This document shows, piece after piece, positions 5,793 through 34,444 of a stretch of DNA of 64,000 nt. The DNA is taken from the NCBI GenBank assembly GCA_964429585.1, contig CAYSCN010000010.1, positions 4,622-68,621 of the forward strand. Reading direction: 5' to 3'. The DNA is from an uncultured bacterium (lineage in GTDB: Bacteria; Desulfobacterota; Deferrimicrobia; J040). A program made the translations under genes and the position numbers. The notes beneath the pieces are model-generated. The model was not told the origin of the DNA. It saw nothing but the letters and a program-made list of their open reading frames with translations, and did no database searches. Numbering within the stretch: position 1 is the stretch's first letter; each line of letters begins with the position of its first letter.

Positions 5793-6440
5793 ATGAAAGG
5801 GATCGTTTTCTTGGGCCCTCCTGGTGCGGGAAAGGGGACACAGGCGAAGAAAATCGTGGAGAAGTTTGGCATCCCTCAGATATCTACGGGGGACATGCTG
5901 AGAGAGGCGGTGAAAGAGGGTACGGAGCTCGGCAAGAAGGCCAAAGAGTACATGGATAAAGGTGCTCTCGTTCCAGATGAGGTCGTCATAGGTATAGTGA
6001 AGGAGAGGCTTGCCAGGCCCGATTGCGATAAAGGGTTCATACTCGATGGATTTCCCAGGACCATCCCGCAGGCAGAAGCGCTGGACAGAGTGGTGGAGGA
6101 GCTTGGGAAGACGATAAATTACGTGATTGCTCTCGAAGTAGATGATGACGAACTGATTGAAAGACTTTCCGGAAGAAGAACCTGCAAGTCGTGCGGGGCC
6201 ATGTTCCACGTGAAGTTCAACCCTCCTGCCAAAGAGGGAGTTTGCGACAAATGCGGCGGTGAGCTCTATCAGAGGGATGATGACAGGGAAGAGACGATAA
6301 AGAACAGGTTGAAGACTTACAAGGAGCAGACGGCTCCTCTCATCGATTACTACAGATCTAGAGGAAACTTCCACGCCATTCAGGCATCTGGAGATATCGA
6401 TGAGATCTTTTCGAGGATAGAAGCGATATTGAATCAGTGA
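5793..6440 (+). CDS. adk: adenylate kinase (zinc-binding lid)
   Basis: 215 aa; [12 protein letters not shown]-loop; CKSCG...CDKCG zinc lid. Confidence 0.95.
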
Positions 6441-9041: not shown

Positions 9042-10079
9042 TTGGAGGATGATATGTTCCAGAGGAATTGGAAAGAATTGATAAAGCCGAAAAGGGTGGA
9101 CATAGATTCGGCAACCGCGACGAGCTTTTATGGAAAGTTCATAGCGGAACCCCTCGAGAGGGGATTCGGGATTACCCTCGGAAACGCCCTGAGAAGAATT
9201 CTTCTTTCTTCACTTCAGGGAGCTGCGATAACGGCAGTGAGAATAGAGGGGGTTCAGCACGAATTTTCGTCCATTCAGGGCGTTGTTGAGGATGTGACCG
9301 ATATAATCCTCAACCTCAAAGGCGTCGAACTGAAGATGGATACCTCGGAACCGAGAAACATCTCCCTTGATGTGACGGGTCCGAAGAAAGTGACTGCAGC
9401 GGATATCCAGTGCGACCATCACGTCGAGGTGATAAACAAGGAGCATTACATAGCCGAAGTTCTTGAAGGCGGCAGGTTGAAGATTGAGATGACCGTGAAG
9501 ATGGGGAAGGGTTACGTTCCTGCGGAGAGGAATCTCGAAGAAGACATGCCTATCGGCACCATTCCGATAGACGCCATTTTCTCGCCAATCAAGAAAGTAA
9601 ATTTCGACGTCACGAATGCTCGTGTTGGGCAGCAGACGGATTACGACAGGTTGATACTTGAAGTGTGGACGGATGGCTCGGTGCTGCCGGCGGATGCGGT
9701 TGCCTATGCTGCGAGAATTCTCCAGGATCAGCTCTCCATATTCATAAATTTCGAGGAGCCCGAGGAGGAGGAAGAGGTTCCAGAAGACGAGGAGGGTATC
9801 GACAGGGAGCTCGAAGAGAAGCTCTACAAGACGATAGACGAGCTGGAGCTGTCCGTTAGGGCGTATAATTGCTTGAGGAACGCTAACATTACGTATATAG
9901 GCGAACTGGTTCAGAAGACTGAACAGGAGATGCTCAAGACCAAGAATTTCGGTCGCAAGAGCCTCAACGAGATCAAGCAGGTTCTGCAGGAGATGGGTCT
10001 TTCTCTCGGAATGGAAATAAAGAACTTCGACCCTGACAGGTTCAGGAAAGAGGGAGAAGACTCCGACACGGAGGAGTAA
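9042..10079 (+). CDS. rpoA: DNA-directed RNA polymerase alpha subunit
   Basis: About 340 aa with N-terminal dimerisation and acidic-linker/CTD regions (ELELSVRAYNCLRNANITYIGEL). The start may instead be the ATG at 9054 (MFQRNWKELIKP), which has the better RBS. Confidence 0.9.
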   Translation: MEDDMFQRNWKELIKPKRVDIDSATATSFYGKFIAEPLERGFGITLGNALRRILLSSLQGAAITAVRIEGVQHEFSSIQGVVEDVTDIILNLKGVELKMDTSEPRNISLDVTGPKKVTAADIQCDHHVEVINKEHYIAEVLEGGRLKIEMTVKMGKGYVPAERNLEEDMPIGTIPIDAIFSPIKKVNFDVTNARVGQQTDYDRLILEVWTDGSVLPADAVAYAARILQDQLSIFINFEEPEEEEEVPEDEEGIDRELEEKLYKTIDELELSVRAYNCLRNANITYIGELVQKTEQEMLKTKNFGRKSLNEIKQVLQEMGLSLGMEIKNFDPDRFRKEGEDSDTEE

Positions 10080-10103
10080 AAAAAGTTCTAAAAGGAGTGA
10101 GCG

Positions 10104-10472
10104 ATGCGTCACGCGAAGGACCACAGGAAACTTGGAAGAAAGCCGGCTCACAGGAAAGCGCTGCTTCGGAATCTGCTCAATTCTCTCATCGAGCACGAGA
10201 GAATCACCACGACCGTGCCGAAGGCAAAGGAGCTGAGGAGGCTCGCTGACAGGGCTATAACGCTCGGCAAGAAAAACACTACCCACGCCAGGCGTATGTT
10301 GTTTGCAATGCTGGTGAACAAGAAGAACACAGCGAAAGTATTCGACGTTCTCGCGAAGAGATACGAAAACAGGAATGGCGGTTACACCAGGATAATAAGG
10401 ACGGGCTTTCGAGCAGGTGACGGAGCAGAGATGGCGATAATCGAGTATCTTCCCGAAGGTGAGAAGAAATAG
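10104..10472 (+). CDS. rplQ: 50S ribosomal protein L17
   Basis: 122 aa; MRHAKDHRKLGRKPAHRKALLRNL canonical L17; last gene of the alpha operon. Confidence 0.95.
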   Translation: MRHAKDHRKLGRKPAHRKALLRNLLNSLIEHERITTTVPKAKELRRLADRAITLGKKNTTHARRMLFAMLVNKKNTAKVFDVLAKRYENRNGGYTRIIRTGFRAGDGAEMAIIEYLPEGEKK

Positions 10473-10502
10473 AGTTTTCCACGTCGAATCCGCAAAGAGA
10501 CA

Positions 10503-10534
10503 AAAAGAGCGGGGTTTTCCCCGCTCTTTTTTTA
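10503..10534 (+). terminator. rho-independent terminator of the ribosomal superoperon
   Basis: AAAAGAGCGGGG-TTTT-CCCCGCTCTTTT stem-loop followed by a T-run directly after the rplQ stop. Confidence 0.85.
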
Positions 10535-10592
10535 TCTACGTGTGTACTTCCAGCTATTTTCAAAGAGATTTTCGATTCCGCGGGCATTTGTC

Positions 10593-10638
10593 TTGACAGA
10601 TTTCTTGACAGCTGTTAGAATTTGAAATCGAATTTCAA
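10593..10638 (+). promoter_or_regulatory. sigma-70-type promoter (TTGACA-N17-TAGAAT) with an adjacent 7-3-7 palindromic operator upstream of fur
   Basis: TTGACA at 10593-10598 and TAGAAT at 10616-10621, 17-nt spacer. Perfect palindrome TTGAAATCGAATTTCAA at 10622-10638, overlapping the probable transcription start and just upstream of the fur RBS. Confidence 0.5.
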
Positions 10639-10671
10639 TATTACAATTGCAAAATCGAGGAGAGAAGGAAG

Positions 10672-11097
10672 TTGGAAGGGATAATCGAAAGGGTTGAGAA
10701 GGATTTGCGCGAATGCGGGAAAAAGGTTTCGAAAACGCGAAGAAAGGTCATGGAAGTTTTCTTCTCGTGCGGCAGGCATGTGTCGGTAGAGGACCTGTAC
10801 ATGGAAGTGAAGAAAAAGCATCCGGAGATAGGATACGCTACAGTCTACAGAACGCTCAAAGTCCTGGAAGAGCTGGGATACGCAGTTTCACTGGATGTGG
10901 GTGACGGTAGCACGAAATTTGAAACAGCCTTTTCACAGCATCACGACCACCTGGTATGTACCTCCTGCGGCACAATCCTCGAATTTCACGAACCGGAGAT
11001 TGAGCGGCTTCAGGAGAGGGTTGCCAGGAAGTATCACTTCATAGTTGAAAGTCATACCCTCCACTTGTTCGGAACATGTGAAAAGTGTCAGGGTTGA
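10672..11097 (+). CDS. fur: Fur-family metal-uptake transcriptional regulator
   Basis: 141 aa; winged-helix N-terminus plus HHDHLVC..C metal site and C-terminal CxxC; TTG start. Confidence 0.85.
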   Translation: MEGIIERVEKDLRECGKKVSKTRRKVMEVFFSCGRHVSVEDLYMEVKKKHPEIGYATVYRTLKVLEELGYAVSLDVGDGSTKFETAFSQHHDHLVCTSCGTILEFHEPEIERLQERVARKYHFIVESHTLHLFGTCEKCQG

Positions 11098-11110
11098 GTG
11101 GGGAGAGTGA

Positions 11111-13097
11111 GATGCAGTGTCACGGGAGGAATGAGGCCTCCAGCGAGGTTTTGTGTGAAGAGAAGATAATCTTCGTGGGAACGCCCAATGTGGGGAAGAG
11201 TGTAATCTTCGGCTACGTTACTGGAAGGTACGTGACCGTGTCGAATTATCCAGGGACCACCGTGGAGGTGATGAAGGGTCTAGCCAGGATAGGTGGAAAA
11301 AGGGTGCAGGTCATCGATACTCCGGGAGTCAACTCGCTTACCCCGATGTCAGAAGACGAAAAGGTGACGCGTGACATACTCATGCATGAGGACAGTTACA
11401 GGGTATTTCAGGTGTGCGATTCCAAGAACCTGGAGAGGTCACTTCCCATAACGATACAGCTGATGGAGCTCGAGGTTCCGTTGGGCCTTATTCTGAACAT
11501 GTCTGACGAAGCGGAAAAACACGGAATTCAGATAGATGACGGTAAGCTTTCTGAAATATTGTCAATTCCGATAATAAAGACGGTAGCTGTCAGAAAAAAA
11601 GGAGTTGATAGAATAGCGTGGCTCTATGGTCAGGTCAGGGAGGGAACTTTCAAGGTAGATTACGGAGATTACGTTGAGGAGGCCGTATCGAAGGTTGAAA
11701 GGGTTCTTGATAGGGGCGGAGTTGCCAAGGGAAAAAGAGGACTGGCTCTGATGATTCTAAGTGGGGACAGAACTCTCGTAGGTTGGTTGAGAGACAATCT
11801 CACCCCCGAGCAGATCGAGGAGCTGGAAGTGGTGAGGGCGGAGCTGGAGAAGCGCGTTGGAGTTCCTGTTTCATACCACATTCACAATGTCAGACATCGG
11901 GCCGTGATGAAGATAATGGAGCAGGTGAGGAGAAGGAGGGCGGAGAGAAAATTCACGTTTCTCGACAGGCTCGGCTGGTTGTCCATGCATCCCGTGTATG
12001 GTGTCCCCGTGATGATCGCTGTCCTCTACCTGGCATATCTTTTCGTGGGTAAGTTCGGAGCGGGCACTATGGTGGATTTCCTGGAAGGTTATGTTTTCGG
12101 GGGATACGTGATTCCTTTTTTCAAGAATCTGTTCGATGCTTACGTTCCGTTTCCCATAGTGAGAGACTTTTTCGTGGGCGACTATGGGATTATCACCATG
12201 GCGCTCACTTACTCATTCGCTATCATTTTTCCAATCGTTGGAACCTTTTTCATCGGATTCGGGATAATGGAGGACTCTGGCTATCTTCCCAGACTTGCAG
12301 TGATGGTGGACAGGATATTCAAGAAGATCGGTTGCAATGGAAAGGCGATTTTGCCGCTCATTCTCGGGCTCGGTTGCGATACCATGGCGACATTGACGAC
12401 CAGGATTCTCGAAACTCCAAAGGAAAGGATAATAATAACGCTTCTCCTCGCACTGGGAGTCCCCTGCTCGGCTCAGCTTGGAGTGGTGCTGGGGATGTTA
12501 GGCGGCATTGGGTTGCTCGCTACTGTGGTATGGGTGCTTTTCATGGTGCTGATCATCGTGTTTGTTGGTTACCTTGCTTCTCTTATAGTAAAGGGGGATG
12601 AGGCGGATTTCATAATGGAGATTCCCCCGATGAGGGTTCCAGAAGCGAGAAACATAATGGTGAAGACGCTTGCCAGAATAGAGTGGTATTTGAAAGAGGC
12701 TGTTCCTCTGTTCATACTGGGCACGGTGGTTCTTTTCGTGGCTGACAGGTTCGGACTGCTCGAGCTGGTCGATAAGTTTTCGGCCCCTGTCGTGGTGAAT
12801 CTTCTGGATCTTCCTCCGAAGACAGCGGAAGCGTTCATAATCGGTTTTTTGAGGAGGGACTACGGTGCGGCAGGTCTCTACGCGATGCAGAAGGCGGGTC
12901 TTCTTGACAACACGCAGGTGATGGTCAGCCTGATTACCATAACGCTTTTCATACCGTGTATAGCCAACCTTTTCGTGATAATAAAGGAAAGAGGAGCGAA
13001 GATTGCGATGGCGATGGTTCTTTTCATATTTCCCTTTGCTCTTCTGGTCGGAACCGTTTTCAACAAGCTCGTCAGATTCCTTGGGATAGTCTTTTGA
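11111..13097 (+). CDS. feoB: ferrous iron transporter FeoB (G-domain plus membrane permease)
   Basis: GTPNVGKS G1 motif, DTPG G3, then about 8 TM helices. ATG at 11111 follows GGGGAGAGTGAG; the ORF-track start at 11085 is a GTG inside the fur 3' end. Confidence 0.9.
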
Positions 13098-13169
13098 GCA
13101 GCCTATTATGTTCATTCGGCCTGGAGAACCGATGAAAAACCCTGTTAATGGGGAAGGAGGTTTCATTAA

Positions 13170-13358
13170 GTGTTTATCCGTTGTCCTTTCTGTGGTATTG
13201 AAATAAACACTGAAGACAGGAGCTGCCACCGTGAGTGCCCTGTTGGGAAGAACTGCAAGATGATATGTTGCCCCAACTGCAAATATTCGTTCGTCATACC
13301 CAGGTCTTCCATTCTCGAGCTCCTGAAAAAACTGTTCGGCGGGAGCGGCGGAAAATGA
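13170..13358 (+). CDS. small Cys-rich (8 Cys) zinc-ribbon-like protein, FeoB-associated
   Basis: 62 aa, CPFC...C...C...C...CCPNC; its stop overlaps the start of the downstream DtxR-FeoA gene (ATGA). Confidence 0.5.
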   Translation: MFIRCPFCGIEINTEDRSCHRECPVGKNCKMICCPNCKYSFVIPRSSILELLKKLFGGSGGK

Positions 13359-14002
13359 GGGAGCACAGCATAGACGAGATACTCGAATTGATATGGACGA
13401 TGAAAGAGGAAGGCCAGAGCTCTGAGTCCAGCATCGTCTCAAGCTCTGATGAGAAGGATGTGGAAGGGCTGATTGAGCAGATGGTAAAAGAGGGTCTTGT
13501 GGAAAGGAAAGAGAAGGATCTGATTCTCACGAAGAAGGGGCACGAGAGGGCCGAGATGATAATAAGGCGACACAGGCTTGCTGAGTGTCTGCTCTCACAG
13601 CTTTTCGATCTGGAAGACCATCACATAGAAAGCAGCGCGTGTAAATTCGAACACATCCTGAGCGATAGGGTGACTGAGTCCGTATGCACTTTTCTTGGGC
13701 ATCCTCCATACTGTCCGCACGGCAAACCGATACCCAGAGGTGAATGTTGTAAAAAGTTCAAGACCGAAGTTGTGCCTCTTGTTATACGCCTTTCCGATGG
13801 TGACGTGGGATCGGAATACAGGATAGTATTCATAATGCCTCGGCAAAGAAAGAGGCTGGAGCGGTTGAGTGCCATGGGCCTGGTGCCGGGGACATCGATA
13901 AAGCTTCTGCAGAAGCGGCCTTCTTACGTTATTCAATTCTCGGAGACGATGATCGCTGTCGATAAAGGGATAGCGGATGAGATTTACGTCAAGAGGGTCT
14001 GA
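13355..14002 (+). CDS. DtxR/MntR-family metal-dependent regulator fused to a C-terminal FeoA (SH3-like) domain
   Basis: MREHSIDEILELIW... HTH; DtxR metal-binding/dimerisation region; C-terminal VVPLVIRLSDGDVGSEYRIVFI...GLVPGTSIKLLQK FeoA-like segment. Start moved to the ATG at 13355, translationally coupled to the Cys-rich ORF. Confidence 0.75.
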   Translation: MREHSIDEILELIWTMKEEGQSSESSIVSSSDEKDVEGLIEQMVKEGLVERKEKDLILTKKGHERAEMIIRRHRLAECLLSQLFDLEDHHIESSACKFEHILSDRVTESVCTFLGHPPYCPHGKPIPRGECCKKFKTEVVPLVIRLSDGDVGSEYRIVFIMPRQRKRLERLSAMGLVPGTSIKLLQKRPSYVIQFSETMIAVDKGIADEIYVKRV

Positions 14003-15230
14003 CAAAAGATACGCGGCCTGTTCGCTTGCTCTGGTATTTTTTTTCGGTTTTCTTTTTTCCTCTTTCCCATTCGCATTTGCTGGGGAAGGGGGGCGTTCCC
14101 TCGTGCTTTTCAAGTTCTACGACGAAGAAGTCGAAGATCCGGAAATCGTCTATCAGTCACTTGAGAATGTTTTGCGGCGTTTGGGAAATTTGCGTCTGGA
14201 AAAGCCCGGTAAATTCAGGGAAATATCAACTGGGGTGAGGTATCTTCCGGAACCAGCGCCTTCAGACGTGTATTCCTGGAGGGAGAGCCTCGAGAAGGCG
14301 AGGGAGATGTTTAGAGTGCTCGACCTGAGCGGAGCGGCTCGATTACTCGAAAGAATCGTGGAAGTCCCATATAAGTATGAGTTGACGAAAACTTCTCTCG
14401 ATATTGTTCGAGAAGCGACTCTTTTGCTCGCCTTCATAAAGTTCAAACTGGGAGAGGAAGACCAGGCGGGAAGGCTTGTAAATAGGCTTAGAGCTTTTGG
14501 CCTGGACATCGACGAAATTGTCGAGATGTTTCCCCCGGATTTCAGTTCTTTTGCGAGGCTGGTGCTGCTCAAGAAGGGAGGAGTGGATCTGGTGATTTCC
14601 TCTACGCCGTCGGGAGCTACAGTTTTCGTGAACGGAGAAGAAGTCGGCAAAACTCCTCTGATCGATACGAGGGATGAATTCGGGAAACTGAAAGTAGAAG
14701 TGAGAAAGAACGGATACGTGACGAGATCGTTTTGGAAATTCGCGCTTCCAGGGGACAAAGTGGCGTTTGAGGTCAATCTCATACCGGACGAGTCGGTTTT
14801 TTTGAGGAGATCGATATCGCGAGGAGATTTCGAAGAGGCCGCACGAAGCGCCGAAGGATTCATTCGTAGAAACGGATTGGACGCTGCTCTCGTTTCCGTC
14901 CTGATGAAAGAGGGGAAATACCTGAAAATGGACCTGCTTCTGGTGATTTCCGGGGAAAACGAGAAAAATTATTCTCTGTTTAGAAACCTGAGGTTAAGTG
15001 ATAAAGTAGTAAATATCAAGACCATAGAACCACTTTTCGAGGATTCCCTTTTTGTCGGGATATGCCCGAATGCAAAGCTGTTTTTGGAAGAGGGCGATAG
15101 AGAGGTGGAGAAATTGACGTCCAAGTGGTGGTTCTGGACGTTGCTTGCTTTTGGGGCAGCGGGTTTGGTTTACGGTGTATCCAAGGGGGGAAGCCGAAGC
15201 TCAGGGGGGAGCGTGACGGTGGAATTCTAG
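13977..15230 (+). CDS. PEGA-domain protein with signal peptide and C-terminal TM anchor
   Basis: 417 aa; hydrophobic N-terminus; two PEGA-like segments (ISSTPSGATVFVNGEEVGKTPL; VEVRKNGYVTRSF); C-terminal WWFWTLLAFGAAGLVYGV TM. Start uncertain (26-nt overlap with the upstream gene). Confidence 0.55.
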   Translation: MRFTSRGSDKRYAACSLALVFFFGFLFSSFPFAFAGEGGRSLVLFKFYDEEVEDPEIVYQSLENVLRRLGNLRLEKPGKFREISTGVRYLPEPAPSDVYSWRESLEKAREMFRVLDLSGAARLLERIVEVPYKYELTKTSLDIVREATLLLAFIKFKLGEEDQAGRLVNRLRAFGLDIDEIVEMFPPDFSSFARLVLLKKGGVDLVISSTPSGATVFVNGEEVGKTPLIDTRDEFGKLKVEVRKNGYVTRSFWKFALPGDKVAFEVNLIPDESVFLRRSISRGDFEEAARSAEGFIRRNGLDAALVSVLMKEGKYLKMDLLLVISGENEKNYSLFRNLRLSDKVVNIKTIEPLFEDSLFVGICPNAKLFLEEGDREVEKLTSKWWFWTLLAFGAAGLVYGVSKGGSRSSGGSVTVEF

Positions 15231-15234
15231 AGAG

Positions 15235-16593
15235 GTGCCCCAAGTAGGCCAAATGAGAGAGAGCTTCAAATTACTCATCACCCTGATAGTTTTGTTTTCG
15301 GCGGTTTCTCTTTCCCTTGCCGGCGGAGAAAAGGTAATAAAGGGGATAGACAAAACCAGGATAATCAAGTCCCAGGACAAGCCTCACGACGTACTGAAAA
15401 AAGCCTGCTACGCCTGCCACCCGGGGGAAAAATATGATTTCTGGATGTTGATTTACGAGGGGAAGGAGCCCCGTATAACGGTGGAGAGGAAGCTCACTCC
15501 CTTCGGAACTGGAGTGGGAGCGGCCACGGAGGGAAAGGGAACATTCAACTCGCACGAGAGTCTCACCTGCAATTTTTGCCACTATGAAAATCCCGCAAAA
15601 GGCAAGCCCAGGTTCATCGTCGACCCGGAAGGGCTCTGCAGGATTTGCCACCCTGCCACGGTGGACCACCATTATCCAGCGGAAAAGGTCAAGGATAAAG
15701 TGGTGGATCTGATAAGGGAGAACAAGCTTCCTGGACTTGCCGGTGAATTCAACTGTTACACCTGCCATAAGATACACGACTCTGTTTTTTCCATGAGAGA
15801 TGATTACAGGAAGGCTCTCGAAGAACTGGAGGTTCCGAATCCTCACGGGAGCAAGGTTTTCTGCGCTACGTGTCACGCGGGAAAAATCAGGAAGGGGGGC
15901 GAAGTAAGGTTCGTCACGGGCCTCGACATAGACGGGCTTTGCCTCCGCTGCCACGGGAAAGAGGGAATACCTTCTTCTCCTCATGTATGGGGTGTCACTT
16001 CGACGGAGAAAACGTGGAAGATGGATTACGTGGGGTATCCCTTGAGGAGGGGAAAGTTGACCTGTCAGACGTGCCACGATGAGGTCTGCTATGATCCCAT
16101 AGATCCGGAAAATCCGAAGTTCCTGAGAGGAGGACCATACGCGAGCGAGGACGAATTCTGTTACAAATGCCACGTCAATACGGATGTCGCTTTTTCGAGC
16201 CCCCACAGGCAAATCGACCAGTTTGGGAGGATAATTGAGGAAAGCTGCCTGTTCTGTCACGTGGGTGTTCCAACGGGCGCAGAGGGAGACCCGAATGTCC
16301 GGCTCGCAGGAGACGAGGTGGGAATATGCGGGACTTGCCACGATATAGTCCCACATCCCGGGGTGAATCACCTGATAAAGCTTCCTCCGAGAATGCTCAG
16401 GAGAAAACGGGAATATGAGAGAAGGCATCTGGTAAAGATTCCCCTTGATGATGAGGGAAACATAAGGTGCAGCACGTGCCACAATCCTCATGCCAAGGGA
16501 GTTATAAAGGGGGAGGCAGGCGTGGGGGCTGGTTCCAAGTGGCGCGTTGCTGACTTCAAAGAAGTGTGCGCTCCGTGCCATGGGCGTTATTGA
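15235..16593 (+). CDS. dodecahaem c-type cytochrome (12 CxxCH), secreted
   Basis: 452 aa; signal peptide; 12 CxxCH motifs counted by eye (CYACH, CNFCH, CRICH, CYTCH, CATCH, CLRCH, CQTCH, CYKCH, CLFCH, CGTCH, CSTCH, CAPCH). Confidence 0.85.
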   Translation: MPQVGQMRESFKLLITLIVLFSAVSLSLAGGEKVIKGIDKTRIIKSQDKPHDVLKKACYACHPGEKYDFWMLIYEGKEPRITVERKLTPFGTGVGAATEGKGTFNSHESLTCNFCHYENPAKGKPRFIVDPEGLCRICHPATVDHHYPAEKVKDKVVDLIRENKLPGLAGEFNCYTCHKIHDSVFSMRDDYRKALEELEVPNPHGSKVFCATCHAGKIRKGGEVRFVTGLDIDGLCLRCHGKEGIPSSPHVWGVTSTEKTWKMDYVGYPLRRGKLTCQTCHDEVCYDPIDPENPKFLRGGPYASEDEFCYKCHVNTDVAFSSPHRQIDQFGRIIEESCLFCHVGVPTGAEGDPNVRLAGDEVGICGTCHDIVPHPGVNHLIKLPPRMLRRKREYERRHLVKIPLDDEGNIRCSTCHNPHAKGVIKGEAGVGAGSKWRVADFKEVCAPCHGRY

Positions 16594-16617
16594 AGAATGC
16601 AAATAAAGGAGTGAGCG

Positions 16618-17283
16618 ATGTGGAGCTTAATCGTCAAAGGCGGATGGGTGATGTATCCCCTTCTCGCACTATCCGTTATTGCACTCGCTATCATAATCGA
16701 AAGGTTGGTAGCCCTGCACAGGATAAGGGTCAACACGTCCGATTTCGTCGAGGAAATCAACGAGCTTCTCGGCAAGAACCAGATGGAGGAAGCGATTGCC
16801 AGGTGCGAGAGAGAAAACAGTCCAGCGGGAAGGGTGATAATGGCGGGGCTTAAGAATTTCAGGAAGAGCAGGGAGGAGGTGGAGGGAGCCATAGAGACCG
16901 CTGGAGATATCGAAATTTCGAAGATGGAGAAAGGGCTTCTTTATCTTTTGACGATCGCGAAGATATCCCCGCTTCTCGGGTTTTTCGGGACCGTTGTAGG
17001 CATGATAAAGGCGTTCGAGGCAATAGGGAGATTTGGGGTTGAGAATCCGCGGATGGTGGCGCTGGGAATTTCGGAGGCTCTGATTACGACGGCAGCCGGT
17101 CTCATCATCGCGATTCCTGTGTTTTTCGCCCACTTCTACTTTACGAATAGAATCAACAGGTTCGTTCTCTCGATGCAGGAGTCGAGCCTGGCCTTTCTCG
17201 AGGCTCTGAGTGAGCTGGAGGAGAAAATAGCAATGCGGGCCGCTCAGGTTGATGAGATAGGAGGTGAATACATTGAAGTTTAG
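16618..17283 (+). CDS. exbB: MotA/TolQ/ExbB-family proton-channel protein
   Basis: 221 aa, 3 TM helices, ExbB/TolQ-like loop and C-terminal TM pair. Confidence 0.8.
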   Translation: MWSLIVKGGWVMYPLLALSVIALAIIIERLVALHRIRVNTSDFVEEINELLGKNQMEEAIARCERENSPAGRVIMAGLKNFRKSREEVEGAIETAGDIEISKMEKGLLYLLTIAKISPLLGFFGTVVGMIKAFEAIGRFGVENPRMVALGISEALITTAAGLIIAIPVFFAHFYFTNRINRFVLSMQESSLAFLEALSELEEKIAMRAAQVDEIGGEYIEV

Positions 17284-17689
17284 ACGGTCGACTCAGAAGG
17301 ACGATGAGGTTATTCCGACTGCATCCATGGCAGATATAGTTTTTCTCCTGATAATTTTCTTCATGGTCACCTCCGTTTTCAACCTCGACCGGGGCCTTGA
17401 GATGAGGCTTCCACAGATGGAGAAAGCGGGTCAAATTTCCAGGAAGGGTATTGTCGTATCGATTGACAAGAAAGGAGACGTGTTCGTCGATGGAAACAAG
17501 GTGGAAATTTACGAGGTAGGAAGAGTCGTGTATGAAAAGCGGGGAAAGAGTCCCGGCGCACCTGTGATATTCAAGAGCGACAGGGACACGAGATATCAAA
17601 TGGTGATGGATGTCCTGGATGAGTTGATGAAGGCAGGAATATACGACGTATCGCTACCTGTGGTGGAAGAGAAGAAAAAAGAGGAATAG
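17264..17689 (+). CDS. exbD: ExbD/TolR-family biopolymer transport protein
   Basis: 141 aa; single N-terminal TM (MADIVFLLIIFFMVTSVF) plus periplasmic domain, typical ExbD. Confidence 0.8.
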   Translation: MNTLKFRRSTQKDDEVIPTASMADIVFLLIIFFMVTSVFNLDRGLEMRLPQMEKAGQISRKGIVVSIDKKGDVFVDGNKVEIYEVGRVVYEKRGKSPGAPVIFKSDRDTRYQMVMDVLDELMKAGIYDVSLPVVEEKKKEE

Positions 17690-17698
17690 GAAGGGAGA

Positions 17699-18517
17699 AT
17701 GACCAGCAGGGAGCTCATAAAGATGTGGGGAGTCGTTCTGGCCTCTGTGCTGGTTCACATTCTTCTCTTTTCTGCTTTTTCGTTCAGGTACGAGCCCAAC
17801 ATAAAATTCATTAGGAAGAAAACGAAAATAACGCTTCACCCCTTCAGGCCACTGGTGCCCAGAAAGGTTTCCTTGAAAAAAGAGGAGCCCGTGATTCCCC
17901 GCTCAGGATCGATGGTAGAGGAATCGAAAGGCGGAATCAAGGCTAAGGAACAGGAACTTGGAATATCCAGGCCCTCCTCAAGTGAAGAAGATTTGATGCC
18001 GGCCCCGGAGGCTGCCGGGGGAGAGGTGGAAGATACTTCTGTTTTGTCAGATTTTCTCGCAATGATCAGAAGTGACGAATTCCAAAAGAGGCTCGAAGAA
18101 ATAAGAAGAGAAAAGGAGAGTGCCTGGACGGGTAAAGGGGTCGGAAAAAGCGACCTGTCTGTCCCTGAGGGCGCGAAGGGAGGGAAAGGAAAGTTCGAGG
18201 AGCCTTACCTGGATCCTAGAGTTAGACTCGTAGTGGTTTCGTATCCGAAAACGTCCATAGAGAAGGAACACCCGTATATAACCTACCCTGATTTGAAGGT
18301 AAAGAAATACGAACTTCCTTCGGGGTGGTGCAATGTGGTGATTCGAATCTATACCGATCAGAGGGGGAACGTGGTGAGCAGGGAAATATTGAGACCTCGG
18401 GAAGGAGGTATGAGGGAGAGGCTGTTTCTCGAGCACACACTCGAATCTCTGAAGAGCTGGAAATTTCCAAGGGCCAAGTCGGAAATCATCATCGATGTGA
18501 GGTATTACGTGGAATGA
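17699..18517 (+). CDS. tonB: TonB-family energy transducer (N-terminal TM, Pro/Glu-rich linker, C-terminal TonB domain)
   Basis: 272 aa; TM WGVVLASVLVHILLFSAF; charged linker; C-terminal domain resembling the TonB C-terminal domain. Confidence 0.65.
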   Translation: MTSRELIKMWGVVLASVLVHILLFSAFSFRYEPNIKFIRKKTKITLHPFRPLVPRKVSLKKEEPVIPRSGSMVEESKGGIKAKEQELGISRPSSSEEDLMPAPEAAGGEVEDTSVLSDFLAMIRSDEFQKRLEEIRREKESAWTGKGVGKSDLSVPEGAKGGKGKFEEPYLDPRVRLVVVSYPKTSIEKEHPYITYPDLKVKKYELPSGWCNVVIRIYTDQRGNVVSREILRPREGGMRERLFLEHTLESLKSWKFPRAKSEIIIDVRYYVE

Positions 18518-19275
18518 CGAGACGGGTTCTTTTGATTCTCGCGTTGTGTCTGGCGGCCATGACAACATATGCCTATGCCATGGATCCAGAGGGGTGTATC
18601 GAGTGTCACGAAATGCAGTTGATAGTCAAGGCGGGACAGGCTTACAGGAACCTGCGGGTTGCCGAAAAGGAATACAGGCTTTCTTCACATGGAAGTCTTT
18701 ACTGTTCGGATTGCCATGCAAGCGAAACGATCGTTCCTCATGAACCCGGAAACAGGGAAGCAGTGTGTTTCGAGAAGTGCCATTCGAAGGGGAGCATCGA
18801 AGAGGTGAGGAAAGTCCACACGGAGAAATACTACAGCTATCAAGACGATATTCATTACAAGGAAGGAATCGGGTGTGCCGATTGTCACAGCGAATTCGGT
18901 AAGGTGAAAACTTATGCCATGTCTCTTAAATGCCTCACCTGTCACGGGAAAAACGGTGAGGGAAAGGGGGTGCTCCTCGTTTCGACCCCGGTTCACGGAG
19001 ACCTCACGGGTGTGGGGGGAGTAGTGACGTGTGGAGATTGTCATTCTCCTCATATTCCAAAGGAGAAAAGAACGGAAGAGACGCTGAATTGCTATCGCGG
19101 CTCAGAGTGTCACGGAAACCGTGTCGTGAGGAAGATTGCCGTAGGCGGTCACCTGTCTTCGGGAGGAGGGCGGATTCTGGGCGTGATCCGGGAGGCAGTA
19201 AGGATTGTGGTCGTGCTGTTCCTGCTCGTGGGGGTAGGGCTCATCCTGTCAGGGAGTAGGAAAAATGGAAGGTGA
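18514..19275 (+). CDS. membrane-anchored multihaem c-type cytochrome (5 CxxCH plus a CX3CH and a CX5CH variant)
   Basis: Start moved to the ATG at 18514 (MTRRVLLILALCLAAM signal), overlapping the tonB stop (ATGA). Motifs CIECH, CSDCH, CFEKCH, CADCH, CLTCH, CGDCH, CYRGSECH; C-terminal TM IVVVLFLLVGVGLIL. Confidence 0.8.
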   Translation: MTRRVLLILALCLAAMTTYAYAMDPEGCIECHEMQLIVKAGQAYRNLRVAEKEYRLSSHGSLYCSDCHASETIVPHEPGNREAVCFEKCHSKGSIEEVRKVHTEKYYSYQDDIHYKEGIGCADCHSEFGKVKTYAMSLKCLTCHGKNGEGKGVLLVSTPVHGDLTGVGGVVTCGDCHSPHIPKEKRTEETLNCYRGSECHGNRVVRKIAVGGHLSSGGGRILGVIREAVRIVVVLFLLVGVGLILSGSRKNGR

Positions 19276-20218
19276 TAGGGTAGTCGTTAAAAAAGAAGTA
19301 AAGAAGTATGCGACTGTGGATGTGATCATCCACCACGCTGCGTTAGCACTTGGTGCTATTCTCATCATCACGGGGGTGGGAGTGAAATTCTGGAGCGGAG
19401 GTTTCTGGGAGGTTTCTCACTTCTGGGCGGGCGTTCTCTTCTCTATTGTCGTTGTCTCTCATCTGTGCGTGTTGATAGCAAGAGGAGTAACGAAGGATAT
19501 TCCGATCGGGAGATTCCCTTTTCTTTTTTCGGTCCGGGAGTTCTTGAATTACTTGAAAGGTATTGGCGGAATGGATGCTAAGTTCTCGGTCCCCGAGAGG
19601 GTGGATTATTTTTCGTTGATGTTTTTTTCAGTCGTTGTCTCTGCTTCTGGGATTTTCCTCCGCTTTCCCAATCTTCTTCCAGGTAGAGGTGGGATAGACG
19701 TTGTCTTCACCATGCTGTCTGTGCATTTCACGTCTGCTGTGGGCTTTACGTTCTGGGTTGTTGCGGTCCACGTGTTGAACACGGTTGTGAGCCCTTTTCC
19801 TGGAAACGACCCGATGTATATCTTCGGCAGAGAAGTCGATATTGAGGCCGTCAGGGAACACAGACCGGGATGGTTCGAGGAGCTGGAAAGGGAGGGGGCC
19901 GTGGAGGTTTTGAAGGAAGAGGACCCGGAAGAAAAGATAGACAGGGAAAAGGTCGAGTCGCTGCTCAATGAAGGCAACCGGAATTTCAGGGAAGGCAATT
20001 TTGAGGATGCGGAAAGACTTTACAGGGAAGCAATAGCTTTGTATCCAGCCTACTCGCAGGCGCACTACAATCTTGCCGTTTTACTCAAGAAAATGGGGCG
20101 ATATGCTGAAGCAATAGGACAGTGCAGGAGATTTCTCGAGGTGGATCCGTTTCATCCTCTTTCGATCAGGGTAAAGGAGATGATACGCGAAATGGAGGAA
20201 GGGCCAGGTGCTCGGTAA
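19265..20218 (+). CDS. integral-membrane b-type cytochrome-like domain fused to C-terminal TPR repeats
   Basis: 317 aa; 4-5 TM helices with conserved His (IIHHAALALG, VVSHLCV, HFTSAVGFTFWVVAVHVLN) resembling FdnI / Ni-Fe hydrogenase cytochrome b; C-terminal TPR-like repeats (AERLYREAIALYPAYSQAHYNLAVLLKKMGRYAEAIGQ). Confidence 0.6.
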   Translation: MEGDRVVVKKEVKKYATVDVIIHHAALALGAILIITGVGVKFWSGGFWEVSHFWAGVLFSIVVVSHLCVLIARGVTKDIPIGRFPFLFSVREFLNYLKGIGGMDAKFSVPERVDYFSLMFFSVVVSASGIFLRFPNLLPGRGGIDVVFTMLSVHFTSAVGFTFWVVAVHVLNTVVSPFPGNDPMYIFGREVDIEAVREHRPGWFEELEREGAVEVLKEEDPEEKIDREKVESLLNEGNRNFREGNFEDAERLYREAIALYPAYSQAHYNLAVLLKKMGRYAEAIGQCRRFLEVDPFHPLSIRVKEMIREMEEGPGAR

Positions 20219-20747
20219 AGGATACAGGTTGTTTTCTATTGTGGTTGCTCTCACGTCTTTTTTCCTTGTTGTGGTTTCCGGTAGGAGTGAGAAAGGCGGT
20301 GTCTCGATACCTCCTGTGAAAATCTCCAGGCTCGTTTACTTCCACGGGAAAGGGGAAGAACCGGAAGTAGTGAGGAAGGACTGTTCGTCCCAGGCAGGTT
20401 GCCATCTCGTCTTCCCGCATGAGGACAGACGCGGCTTTGCTGCTTTCCGGAATCAACACGAAACTTTCATGGACTGTTTCGTCTGTCACAGGATCTCGGG
20501 GTTTGAGAAATTCGCTGTGGAAAAAACTTACGGCAGGAGGGTGGTGATATTGGAGACGTTGCCGCAACGTGGCGATTTTCACGCTCAATTCATGAAGCCG
20601 GTTGGTTGTGACGGCTGTCACACTGACGAGGGGAAACGGCGGTTCGAAAAAGTCACCGGGGAAAAATTTGGTAGCGAGATGGTGAATCCTCTTCCGCTCA
20701 TTCTCCTCAAGGAAGGATCGAAGAAATGGTTCGTTCCAGGTTTCTGA
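20208..20747 (+). CDS. small periplasmic c-type cytochrome (2 canonical CxxCH plus a possible variant site)
   Basis: 179 aa; N-terminal TM/signal; CFVCH, CDGCH and CSSQAGCH. Confidence 0.7.
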   Translation: MLGKGYRLFSIVVALTSFFLVVVSGRSEKGGVSIPPVKISRLVYFHGKGEEPEVVRKDCSSQAGCHLVFPHEDRRGFAAFRNQHETFMDCFVCHRISGFEKFAVEKTYGRRVVILETLPQRGDFHAQFMKPVGCDGCHTDEGKRRFEKVTGEKFGSEMVNPLPLILLKEGSKKWFVPGF

Positions 20748-32828: not shown

Positions 32829-34444
32829 TTGTAGTGATAGACAACTACGATTCTTTTACCTTCAACATCGTTCAGGCTCTTCAGGCGCTTGGAGCGCAGG
32901 TGGAGGTGTTTAGAAATGATCAGGTTTCTGTCGAGCAGGTTGAAGCGATGGAGCCTGATGGTATCGTCATTTCTCCCGGCCCTGGAGGTCCTGACAGGGC
33001 GGGAATAAGCGTCGAAGCTGTGAAGCGTTTTGCGGGAAAAGTTCCCATTCTGGGAGTTTGTCTCGGCCATCAGTGCATAGGATACGCTCTCGGAGCGAAA
33101 GTGGTTTCCGCCCGTAAAATAATGCACGGAAAGACTTCCCCGATACATCACGACGGGAGCGGCATTTTTGCGGGGATAGAGAATCCATTCAGAGCAACCA
33201 GATATCACTCGCTCGCGGTGATGTGGGATCGAATTCCCGAGGATGTCGAGGTTTGTGCGTGGACCGAGGACGGGGAGATAATGGGGATAAGGCACAGGAA
33301 ATATCCCCTTTACGGCGTCCAGTTTCACCCCGAGTCGGTGATGACCGATCACGGGGTCAGGCTATTCGAGAACTTCCTGAGCGTGGTGAAGGGGAGCCAG
33401 GGAATCGTCAGAGAGTTCGTGAATATCAAGGAACCGATTTCACTCGTTGTGTCGGGCGCCCATCTGACGGGTCCTCAAATGAGGGAGGCCATGGAAATGA
33501 TGATGTCCGGAGACGCGACTCCGGCTCAAATAGCCTCTTTTCTCACGGCCCTTTCCATGAAAGGTGAGACTCCGGAGGAGATTGCAGCTGCTGTTGGCGT
33601 TATGAGGGAGAAAGCGGTGAGAATCAGGTCGAATCATCCGGAGCTGCTCGATACGTGCGGCACGGGAGGAGACAGGAAGGGCACCTTCAACATATCCACT
33701 ACTGTGGCTTTCATAGCCGCAGGCGCCGGAGTTCCGGTGGCGAAGCATGGAAACAGGTCTGTCACGAGCAAGGCAGGCTCTGCGGATGTTCTTGAAGCTC
33801 TGGGTGCAGATCTCGATACACCCGTGGAGGTTGTCGAAAAATGCTTAAATGACGTCGGAGTGACGTTCATGTTCGCTCCAAAGTTCCACCTTGCCATGAA
33901 ATACGCCATAGGCCCGAGGAGGGAAATAGGTATAAAGACGATTTTCAATGTTCTGGGCCCGCTTTCCAATCCTGCAGGCGCAAACAGGCAGATCGTTGGG
34001 GTTTTCAGTGAGGAACTCGGGAGGGTCTACGCCAAGGTGTTGAAAGAGCTCGGGATGGCTAGGGGAGTGGTGGTCTACGGAGCTGACGGGCTCGACGAGG
34101 TGTCGCCGTCGGGGCCAACGCTGGTATGGGAAGTGGACGAGAAGGAGATCAGGGAATACGTTTTCGATCCCTTGGCTATCGGGTTGACGTATCATCCTCT
34201 GGATGAGATTCTGGGAGGCGACGCCAAGGTGAACGGAGAAATATTGCTTTCCGTTCTTTCCGGCGAGGAGAGCCCTTACCTGGATGCGGCGCTTCTCAAC
34301 GCGGCCTTTGCCATATATTGTGGTGGTGTTGCATCCGACGTGAAGGAGGGGTACGAACTGGCGAGGGAATCCGTTTTCTCGGGGAGAGCGAAGGAGAAGC
34401 TTGCAGGTTTTCTCGATTACTTCGGGGGTAAATCTGGAAATTGA
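32825..34444 (+). CDS. trpGD: bifunctional anthranilate synthase component II (GATase) / anthranilate phosphoribosyltransferase
   Basis: MIVVIDNYDSFTFNIVQ...GVCLGHQ...FHPES class-I GATase followed by the TrpD domain (CGTGGDRKGTFNIST, GNRSVTSKAGSADVLEALG). ATGA overlap with trpE. Confidence 0.9.
   Translation: MIVVIDNYDSFTFNIVQALQALGAQVEVFRNDQVSVEQVEAMEPDGIVISPGPGGPDRAGISVEAVKRFAGKVPILGVCLGHQCIGYALGAKVVSARKIMHGKTSPIHHDGSGIFAGIENPFRATRYHSLAVMWDRIPEDVEVCAWTEDGEIMGIRHRKYPLYGVQFHPESVMTDHGVRLFENFLSVVKGSQGIVREFVNIKEPISLVVSGAHLTGPQMREAMEMMMSGDATPAQIASFLTALSMKGETPEEIAAAVGVMREKAVRIRSNHPELLDTCGTGGDRKGTFNISTTVAFIAAGAGVPVAKHGNRSVTSKAGSADVLEALGADLDTPVEVVEKCLNDVGVTFMFAPKFHLAMKYAIGPRREIGIKTIFNVLGPLSNPAGANRQIVGVFSEELGRVYAKVLKELGMARGVVVYGADGLDEVSPSGPTLVWEVDEKEIREYVFDPLAIGLTYHPLDEILGGDAKVNGEILLSVLSGEESPYLDAALLNAAFAIYCGGVASDVKEGYELARESVFSGRAKEKLAGFLDYFGGKSGN

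Follow-up and report, generated by a model that had tools for sequence, protein, structure and literature searches.

A probable Fur-autoregulated ferrous-iron uptake operon of Deferrimicrobia, with a FeoA-associated Cys-ribbon family and a DtxR-like protein that may have lost DNA reading

In Desulfuromonas and Geobacter the operons “fur2-feoB1-R” and “feoB1-R” stand behind Fur boxes of a delta-proteobacterial type (dFUR), whose consensus WTGAAAATNATTTTCAW was drawn from the upstream regions of fur and feo (Rodionov et al. 2004, PMC545781); the E. coli Fur profile fails in delta-proteobacteria (PMC545781). In G. metallireducens feoB-1 adjoins fur, there are no feoA genes and the protein clusters apart from characterised FeoBs (PMC2700814). 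For FeoB, the most widespread bacterial Fe(II) importer, the mode of control and the roles of FeoA and FeoC are still open (PMC8749426, PMC8980893). We analysed a related locus in a stretch of 64,000 nucleotides (“the window”) of contig CAYSCN010000010.1, from an uncultured Deferrimicrobia bacterium. Here a promoter, a palindrome, fur, feoB, a gene for a small protein with eight cysteines (the Cys-ribbon) and a gene for a DtxR-like protein with a FeoA domain follow one another. All the sequence elements listed in a preliminary description of this locus were found again in place. On balance we favour the view that a ferrous-iron uptake operon under Fur autoregulation, with an accessory pair of genes, has its 5' end here. 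The gene arrangement is known in outline from the fur-feoB-R operons of 2004, and promoter, operator and operon outline are of a known kind. The FeoA-associated Cys-ribbon family and the likely loss of DNA reading in its DtxR-like partner are new.

The palindrome TTGAAATCGAATTTCAA is composed of two 7-bp arms separated by three bases (7-3-7). It abuts the -10 hexamer, over the expected transcription start, 50 bp upstream of the fur start. It fits the dFUR consensus in the identical 17-bp frame, at 13 of the 16 specified positions: the outer pentamers (TGAAA-N5-TTTCA) and their spacing agree with the Fur-box pentamers of that consensus, and the central five bases, TCGAA replacing ATNAT, are the sole source of the 7-3-7 look. 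With a matrix trained on 17 published sites of Geobacter and Desulfuromonas (training range 19.3–25.9 bits, median 21.9), the palindrome scores 22.1 bits, above the training median. It ranks first in the window, where the next match has 15.4 bits; the maximum over 30 shuffled windows is 19.3 bits. The preliminary description had judged the palindrome unlike the classic Fur box, which is true only relative to the E. coli consensus.

Orthologous boxes of the form TGAWA-N5-WWTCA are present directly after the -10 in six related genomes (L001–L004, L081 and L084; Table 1), with 17.8 to 27.0 bits for the same matrix. Those of L002, L003 and L004 agree with the classical E. coli consensus GATAATGATAATCATTATC at 15 of 19 positions. 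This level is reached once in the window, at 26454–26472, at the end of an FtsB-like coding sequence and apparently by chance.

Some points weigh against this assignment. Perfect 7-3-7 palindromes are not unusual in themselves (5 in the window versus 3.1 expected from shuffles), and what makes this one significant is where it lies, how well it fits the motif and that related genomes keep it. The site of the window matches the 19-bp E. coli consensus at 12 positions, being the most diverged of the orthologous boxes, and the Bacillus-type 7-1-7 consensus at 9 of 14. The 17 training sites of the matrix are themselves predicted, not footprinted. Nevertheless, by sequence the palindrome belongs to the delta-type Fur boxes, and autoregulation of the operon through putative Fur binding is the best reading.

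The preliminary description had left the site between Fur and the DtxR-like protein. An operator of the latter, or of both regulators, would account for the perfect 7-3-7 register, which is unlike the 7-1-7 and the 19-bp Fur consensus, and autoregulation is plausible because the DtxR-like gene belongs to the same operon. But the site has the exact 17-bp dFUR frame and a score above the median of the published sites. Its orthologues drift towards classical Fur boxes (e.g. TGATAATCAATTTCA) and not towards the DtxR/IdeR box TTAGGTTAGSCTAACCTAA (consensus in PMC8464063), their outer pentamers match the Fur box, and the helix-turn-helix of the DtxR-like protein looks unfit for reading DNA (see below). 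We thus hold such an operator to be very improbable. The in-frame fit to dFUR and the classical-looking boxes of L002–L004 make Fur a much better candidate for binding the palindrome, so that of the two proposals only the one naming Fur is favoured.

The preliminary description had also suggested a search for further TTGAAAT-N3-ATTTCAA sites. In the window the exact motif occurs once; allowing up to three mismatches gives 5 matches versus 4.3 expected, none of them regulatory. No second regulatory copy of the Fur box was found in the 64 kb, the other matrix matches lying within coding sequence. This is also the case for the next-best matches of a matrix built from five orthologous sites, at 33931 and 8269 (trpGD and a ribosomal-protein gene).

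The Cys-ribbon gene had been described as an open reading frame (ORF) for 62 aa, translationally coupled to the DtxR-like gene, and both the gene and the coupling proved real. Its TGA overlaps the following ATG as ATGA, it is preceded by a GGAGG, and among ten lineages compared the eight cysteines are all kept, with substitutions concentrated at the third codon position (1059, 572 and 430 at positions 3, 1 and 2 respectively). Reading frame, cysteines and ATGA overlap are also found in distant Deferrimicrobia, where annotators leave a 198-bp “gap” in place of the gene. A word-based search gave a single relative, as for a lineage-specific ORF; this was ruled out by an exhaustive profile search, which gave 285 cluster representatives (E <= 1e-3), mostly of 56–90 aa, in bacteria and archaea. 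The conservation that the preliminary description had left to be checked is thus observed.

The family follows the pattern CPxCG...C-x3-CP-x5-C-x3-(C)CPxCxY, then a basic amphipathic helix. C5, C8, C23, C29, C34, C37 and Y39 are invariant and C19 nearly so. No Pfam or NCBIfam model matches the protein: the FeoC model PF09012 gives no match to it or to 10 relatives, and PF12669 none (E <= 0.05) to it or its relatives, no hydrophobic segment being visible in the 62-aa sequence. Zn_ribbon_4 reaches 19.1 bits, below its cut-off of 30.3, with the CPFC and CPNC knuckles present. In the AlphaFold2 model, which is of moderate confidence (predicted local distance difference test, pLDDT, 67), two beta-hairpins are joined by a helix at the C-terminus. 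With this model Foldseek returned no significant structure, only generic zinc ribbons at E >= 1.6.

To describe the gene context we used a sample of 80 metagenome loci, counting on each side the loci readable on that side. It was seeded with the single peptide pattern [IV]CCPNC[GKR]Y and covers only part of the family, which tempers what follows. Directly upstream of the Cys-ribbon, feoB is found in 61 of 63 loci; downstream, all 74 have a FeoA domain. This domain is fused in the same frame with the Cys-ribbon in 42 loci, is encoded by the next ORF in 13, and comes with a DtxR-like domain, as in the window, in 19. Fusions of the Cys-ribbon to the N-terminus of a FeoA domain also occur in 20 of the best 150 cluster representatives, and in individual loci the Cys-ribbon gene shares start or stop codon bases with feoB on one side and the FeoA gene on the other. 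Disparities appear between subclasses: fur is upstream of feoB in 8 of 12 loci with the DtxR-like protein and in 0 of 21 with plain FeoA. In a control of 80 loci obtained from a FeoB search, feoA stands upstream of feoB in ordinary systems and the ribbon is absent from them; it is found only beside the FeoBs closest to that of the window. In one locus (L005, 5991–6348) plain FeoA is encoded downstream of a cyanobacterial FeoB (41% identical) and no Cys-ribbon is detectable, so FeoA can follow feoB without it.

A real small zinc ribbon could lie beside feoB incidentally and serve as a general zinc or redox factor or bind nucleic acids. It would then be expected that no known family or solved structure matches beyond generic zinc ribbons, and one database entry indeed reads “predicted Zn-ribbon and HTH transcriptional regulator”. 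This is hard to reconcile with the near-constant neighbours in bacteria and archaea, the in-frame fusions to FeoA, the codon overlaps on both sides and the absence of the ribbon from ordinary feoA-feoB loci, and we give it little credence. As judged from sequence and context, the Cys-ribbon is an undescribed family tied to feoB and FeoA. It is probably an overlooked component of Feo, because it lies almost always between feoB and a FeoA domain. Gene context and fusions establish this link; metal chemistry and protein contacts are predictions.

Named members of the family are labelled “hypothetical protein”, including those of the cultured carriers Anaeromyxobacter terrae (L173; fur-feoB-cys-DtxR-like/FeoA) and Palaeococcus ferrophilus (feoB-cys-feoA). 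Gene callers often skip the gene. In several assemblies (L081–L084, about 5803–6000) it is uncalled, leaving the 198-bp gap, and several database entries stretch the DtxR-like gene to 255 aa over it in another frame (13235–14002 in the window). In the window the spacer between feoB and the Cys-ribbon gene has 72 nt (13098–13169), versus 13–25 nt or an overlap in relatives; a weak promoter-like match in it (13081–13109, 9/12) is not conserved.

Proteins of the DtxR family typically combine three domains: a winged helix, one for dimerisation and an SH3-like one at the C-terminus (PMC8464063). Such DtxR-type proteins were removed when Feo researchers counted FeoA architectures (PMC8980893). The architecture of the DtxR-like protein is thus ordinary for DtxR/IdeR, while the subfamily is unusual in detail. 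The preliminary description, which saw FeoA not free-standing but fused to a DtxR repressor, was right that no separate feoA is present; the three-domain plan is no new fusion.

The unusual details concern first the N-terminal domain. About 5000 homologues carry PF02742 and PF04023 and never PF01325, the DtxR-type helix-turn-helix; among the 120 best listed almost all have exactly 215 aa. In an alignment of 27 members PF01325 matches none, even at E <= 1, and pairwise identity drops to 0.40 over the helix-turn-helix, compared with 0.72–0.79 elsewhere. Every one of the 27 has an acidic recognition helix, of net charge -2 to -7. None of the DNA-contact arginine positions of DtxR (R27, R29, R47, R50, R60) is kept as a basic residue, and several contact positions have turned acidic: Glu at R47 in 19 sequences, Asp or Glu at R60 in 20, Glu or Asp at S42 in 22. 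The metal-ligand positions E8, E11, H73, E77, E92, C96, E99 and H100, on the other hand, are invariant (27/27). The degenerate N-terminus is common to every other lineage carrying the module. These observations suggest that the protein may not be a DNA-binding regulator and that DNA reading was likely lost; the claim of two different iron regulators around one transporter is accordingly doubtful.

The C-terminal domain, taken alone, matches by sequence only stand-alone FeoA structures (3e19, E = 1e-4), and in sister operons the slot held here by the DtxR-like protein is occupied by an 84-aa FeoA or a ribbon-FeoA fusion. The acidic helix-turn-helix, the kept metal ligands, the FeoA-like C-terminus and the FeoA slot lead us to hypothesise that the protein could be a metal-sensing FeoA, which we consider about as likely as a true repressor. 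A FeoC-like nature of the N-terminal winged helix was rejected: PF09012 appears only at E = 0.52, and a PDB profile search found no FeoC (best MarR-like, E = 0.015).

The competing explanation is an ordinary metal-dependent repressor, a second regulator of iron or manganese of the IdeR or MntR kind that is co-expressed with Fur, has the usual SH3-like third domain and controls genes elsewhere. We regard it as a strong competitor, with a chance not far below one in two. In addition to the full domain plan and the conserved metal ligands, it accords with several observations that count against a FeoA-like role. The AlphaFold2 model (pLDDT 72.8 overall) still shows a winged-helix fold for residues 1–58 (pLDDT 74–90). 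The best Foldseek matches are full-length IdeR/DtxR, thus DNA-binding proteins (E ~1e-12, 213–227 aligned columns), and members of the subfamily are entered in databases as “DtxR family Mn-dependent transcriptional regulator”. Embree and colleagues reportedly described the neighbour of Geobacter feoB-1, which is called IdeR, as an alternative iron regulator in 2014. [quoted passage not shown] Against an ordinary repressor stand the contact arginine positions, none of them kept basic, and the acidic recognition helix, which is the least conserved part of the protein, the reverse of usual orthologous repressors. Neither the absence of PF01325 nor the exact filling of the plain-FeoA slot would be expected of it. 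Moreover, in L090 a canonical DtxR-type regulator adjoins the DtxR-like gene. The NCBIfam equivalogs are not reached either (DtxR 79.8 bits versus a cut-off of 290, MntR 74.6 versus 350).

This canonical regulator (L090 5842–6255; L091 3968–4381) is a two-domain DtxR/MntR protein (PF01325+PF02742) directly behind feoB-ribbon-DtxR-like/FeoA. It has a normal helix-turn-helix and shares a motif C...GHP..CPHG...CC with the DtxR-like protein of the window. In the latter the motif, SVCTFLGHPPxCPHGxPIPRGxCC, spans residues 111–132 (13685–13750), between the dimerisation and FeoA domains. Its residues C111, H116, C120, H122, C131 and C132 do not vary across lineages, and AlphaFold2 models the stretch with little confidence; the motif may form an additional metal site.

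The mechanism that we propose is as follows. When iron is plentiful, Fe2+-Fur would occupy the palindrome, block the promoter and shut off fur, feoB and the genes behind; motif, position and conservation are the reasons for this step. FeoB is the Fe(II) permease, and the products of the next two genes would be its cytoplasmic accessory pair, made in fixed proportion through the ATGA overlap. The ribbon, with its predicted zinc-ribbon-like fold and suggested metal sites C5/C8/C34/C37 and C19/C23/C29/(C33), would act with the FeoA domain on FeoB, docking by its basic amphipathic C-terminal helix. The DtxR-like protein could be the FeoA of the system with its own Fe2+/Mn2+ sensor, its FeoA domain being attached to a DtxR-type module for metal binding and dimerisation whose winged helix has lost its DNA-reading residues. 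Its DtxR-type module might then sense cytosolic metal and reposition the FeoA domain on FeoB, tuning uptake post-translationally in addition to Fur. Both Fur binding and expression of the operon in the source organism are predicted here.

More broadly, and only tentatively, we envisage an undescribed class of Feo in which feoB is followed by the Cys-ribbon and then by FeoA. The ribbon, of 7–8 cysteines, and FeoA would be obligate partners at the cytoplasmic side of FeoB. In the subclass linked to fur, a former DtxR repressor, its DNA binding lost and its metal site kept, would sense cytosolic Fe2+ and gate FeoB directly. We give this a chance clearly below even.

Table 1. Positions in the window of the features of the locus, domains of the DtxR-like protein (by residue) and Fur-type sites of related genomes.
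Feature	Position	Strand	Details
Intrinsic terminator	10496..10537	+	hairpin and T-run 3' of rplQ; inverted repeat with 19-nt arms, 89% complementary; terminator scan 13 pairs
Sigma-70-type promoter	10593..10621	+	TTGACA (10593-10598), 17-nt spacer, TAGAAT (10616-10621), TG of extended -10 (10613-10614)
Fur box, delta-proteobacterial type (predicted)	10622..10638	.	tTGAAAtcGAaTTTCAa versus consensus WTGAAAATNATTTTCAW
fur	10672..11097	+	TTG start, 141 aa; PF01475 E = 3.4e-36, 124.5 bits (cut-off 23.1)
feoB	11112..13097	+	661 aa; TIGR00437 400.8 bits versus cut-off 315.65
Cys-ribbon gene	13170..13358	+	GTG start, 62 aa, 8 Cys; GGAGG ribosome-binding site 8 nt upstream
DtxR-like / FeoA-domain gene	13355..14002	+	215 aa; PF02742 2e-25 (88.8 bits), PF04023 FeoA 6e-14 (52.2 bits)
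DtxR-like protein, divergent acidic winged helix	residues 1-58		
DtxR-like protein, metal-binding and dimerisation domain	residues 59-128		
DtxR-like protein, Cys/His linker	residues 111-141		overlaps the end of the dimerisation domain
DtxR-like protein, FeoA domain	residues 145-213		
Probable continuation of transcription unit	13977..21610	+	reading frames overlapping or <=25 nt apart
Orthologous Fur-type site, L001			TGAAAAAGAATTTCA
Orthologous Fur-type site, L002			TGATAACGAATATCA
Orthologous Fur-type site, L003			TGATAATCAATTTCA
Orthologous Fur-type site, L004			TGAAAATCATTTTCA
Orthologous Fur-type site, L081			TGAAAATGAAATTCA
Orthologous Fur-type site, L084			TGAAAATGATATTCA

The remaining features of the locus are given in Table 1. 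The terminator, behind the end of rplQ (10472), separates the iron operon from the ribosomal/rpoA operon. The promoter that the preliminary description had placed directly before the palindrome is present, with its TTGACA-N17-TAGAAT, at 11 of 12 positions, the best promoter-like site within 10000–15500. TTGAC-type -35 boxes are found at the equivalent relative position in the six genomes with orthologous boxes. A 9-nt direct repeat, TCTTGACAG, occurs two times within 10591–10611, 12 bp apart, and produces two TTGACA boxes, versus a single TTGAC box in the relatives. The second one (10605–10610) could pair with a weak -10, TCGAAT (10628–10633), inside the Fur box.

The Fur protein displays an HHDH motif and two CxxC pairs (CTSC and CEKC), as read from its translation. 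Among NCBIfam models it scores highest with the Fur equivalogs (120, 115 and 104 bits), then with PerR (83) and Zur (31), in no case reaching the cut-off. Its identity to syntenic orthologues is 54–73%. FeoB has the N-terminal G-domain (FeoB_N), FeoB_Cyto, two Gate domains and FeoB_C, with no N-terminal FeoA domain. No free-standing feoA was found between fur and feoB or elsewhere in the window; the rest of the genome may hold one, which would count against our view of the DtxR-like protein. The four close relatives L001–L004 (FeoB identity 65–75%) are Candidatus Deferrimicrobia or unclassified “Deltaproteobacteria” metagenome-assembled genomes; more distant members of the class come next. The order rpoA-rplQ-fur-feoB-small ORF-dtxR-like-PEGA-cytochrome-exbB-exbD is kept across Deferrimicrobia, close and distant relatives alike.

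The locus had been presented as a compact iron module after the ribosomal terminator. It does have one promoter and operator, but 14002 is probably not its end. The following gene shares 26 nt with the DtxR-like gene, and the co-oriented run recorded at 13977–21610 (with another at 21843–24776) encodes in order, by Pfam, a PEGA-domain protein, a multihaem cytochrome, ExbB, ExbD, an unknown protein, a cytochrome c3-like protein, a cytochrome b561-TPR protein, a further unknown protein and an NHL-repeat protein. The same downstream order is present in L081–L084, and a terminator scan gave no convincing terminator from 14002 to about 21610. The transcription unit probably runs past 14002, and the Fur-box promoter may drive an operon of at least 11 kb in which cytochromes and an ExbBD motor are linked with Fe(II) uptake.

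The link of a small Cys-rich protein with FeoA, which amounts to physical fusion in more than half of the loci sampled, suggests that Feo has a partner so far missed. Databases that include the family label it hypothetical. Since its carriers include bacteria and archaea, with cultured Anaeromyxobacter and Palaeococcus among them, the Cys-ribbon is open to experiment. If the DtxR-like protein is indeed a metal-sensing FeoA, a transcription-factor scaffold would have been reused as a regulator of a transporter. Annotation may also profit, the 62-aa gene being uncalled in some genomes and in others overwritten by the false 255-aa extension of the next gene.

The fur-feoB1-R operons of Geobacter and Desulfuromonas (PMC545781) are among the closest described systems. 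They share with the locus a 17-bp palindrome upstream of fur (at -30 to -37 in the published cases, at -50 in the window), fur, a feoB without upstream feoA, a regulator-like gene and a predicted iron-dependent autoregulation. The locus differs from them in the centre of its palindrome and in its position directly behind rplQ, apparently running into cytochrome and exbBD genes. It also has a small Cys ORF between feoB and R that is undescribed in that paper. Our literature search found no paper naming GSU1381 or GSU1382.

The DtxR-like protein shares with DtxR, IdeR and MntR (PDB 1C0W, 1U8R, 7B1V) the domain order, the PF02742 match and the SH3/FeoA-like C-terminal domain. Among its metal ligands E8 and E11 resemble MntR, and C96, E99 and H100 resemble DtxR. 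It differs by the missing PF01325 match, by contact residues replaced, often by acids, by a recognition helix three residues shorter at its start, and by a C-terminal domain closer in sequence to stand-alone FeoA than to the SH3 domain of DtxR. Genes of its type are always behind feoB and a Cys-ribbon gene.

Canonical FeoA (~75 aa, SH3-like, upstream of feoB) and the Bacteroides fusions of FeoA with FeoB (PMC8980893) share with the locus a PF04023 domain encoded beside feoB. They give precedents for an action of FeoA through contact with the G-domain of FeoB and for its covalent joining to a partner (PMC8980893). In contrast to canonical FeoA, that of the present class is downstream of feoB, never alone, and joined to or preceded by a Cys-ribbon. 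In the window it is not a stand-alone protein of 75–85 aa but a domain on a DtxR-type sensor module, within 215 aa, with only the 62-aa ORF between its gene and feoB.

Like FeoC and the PF12669 peptides, a Cys-rich membrane family discussed for other Feo systems (PMC8749426), the Cys-ribbon is small, bears cysteines, is encoded directly downstream of feoB and is suspected of binding metal or Fe-S and of modulating FeoB. It lacks the winged helix of FeoC and the membrane segment of PF12669, has another cysteine pattern, and is tied to FeoA instead of replacing it. The order feoB, small Cys-rich protein, feoA is also that of Mvol_0975-0976-0977 in Methanococcus voltae (PMC9431491). The small protein, described there as ferredoxin-like (CX2CX2C) and unique to M. 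voltae, resembles the Cys-ribbon by gene order. It was detected by proteomics, up 69-fold under FeS2 growth (PMC9431491); such a microprotein can therefore be expressed.

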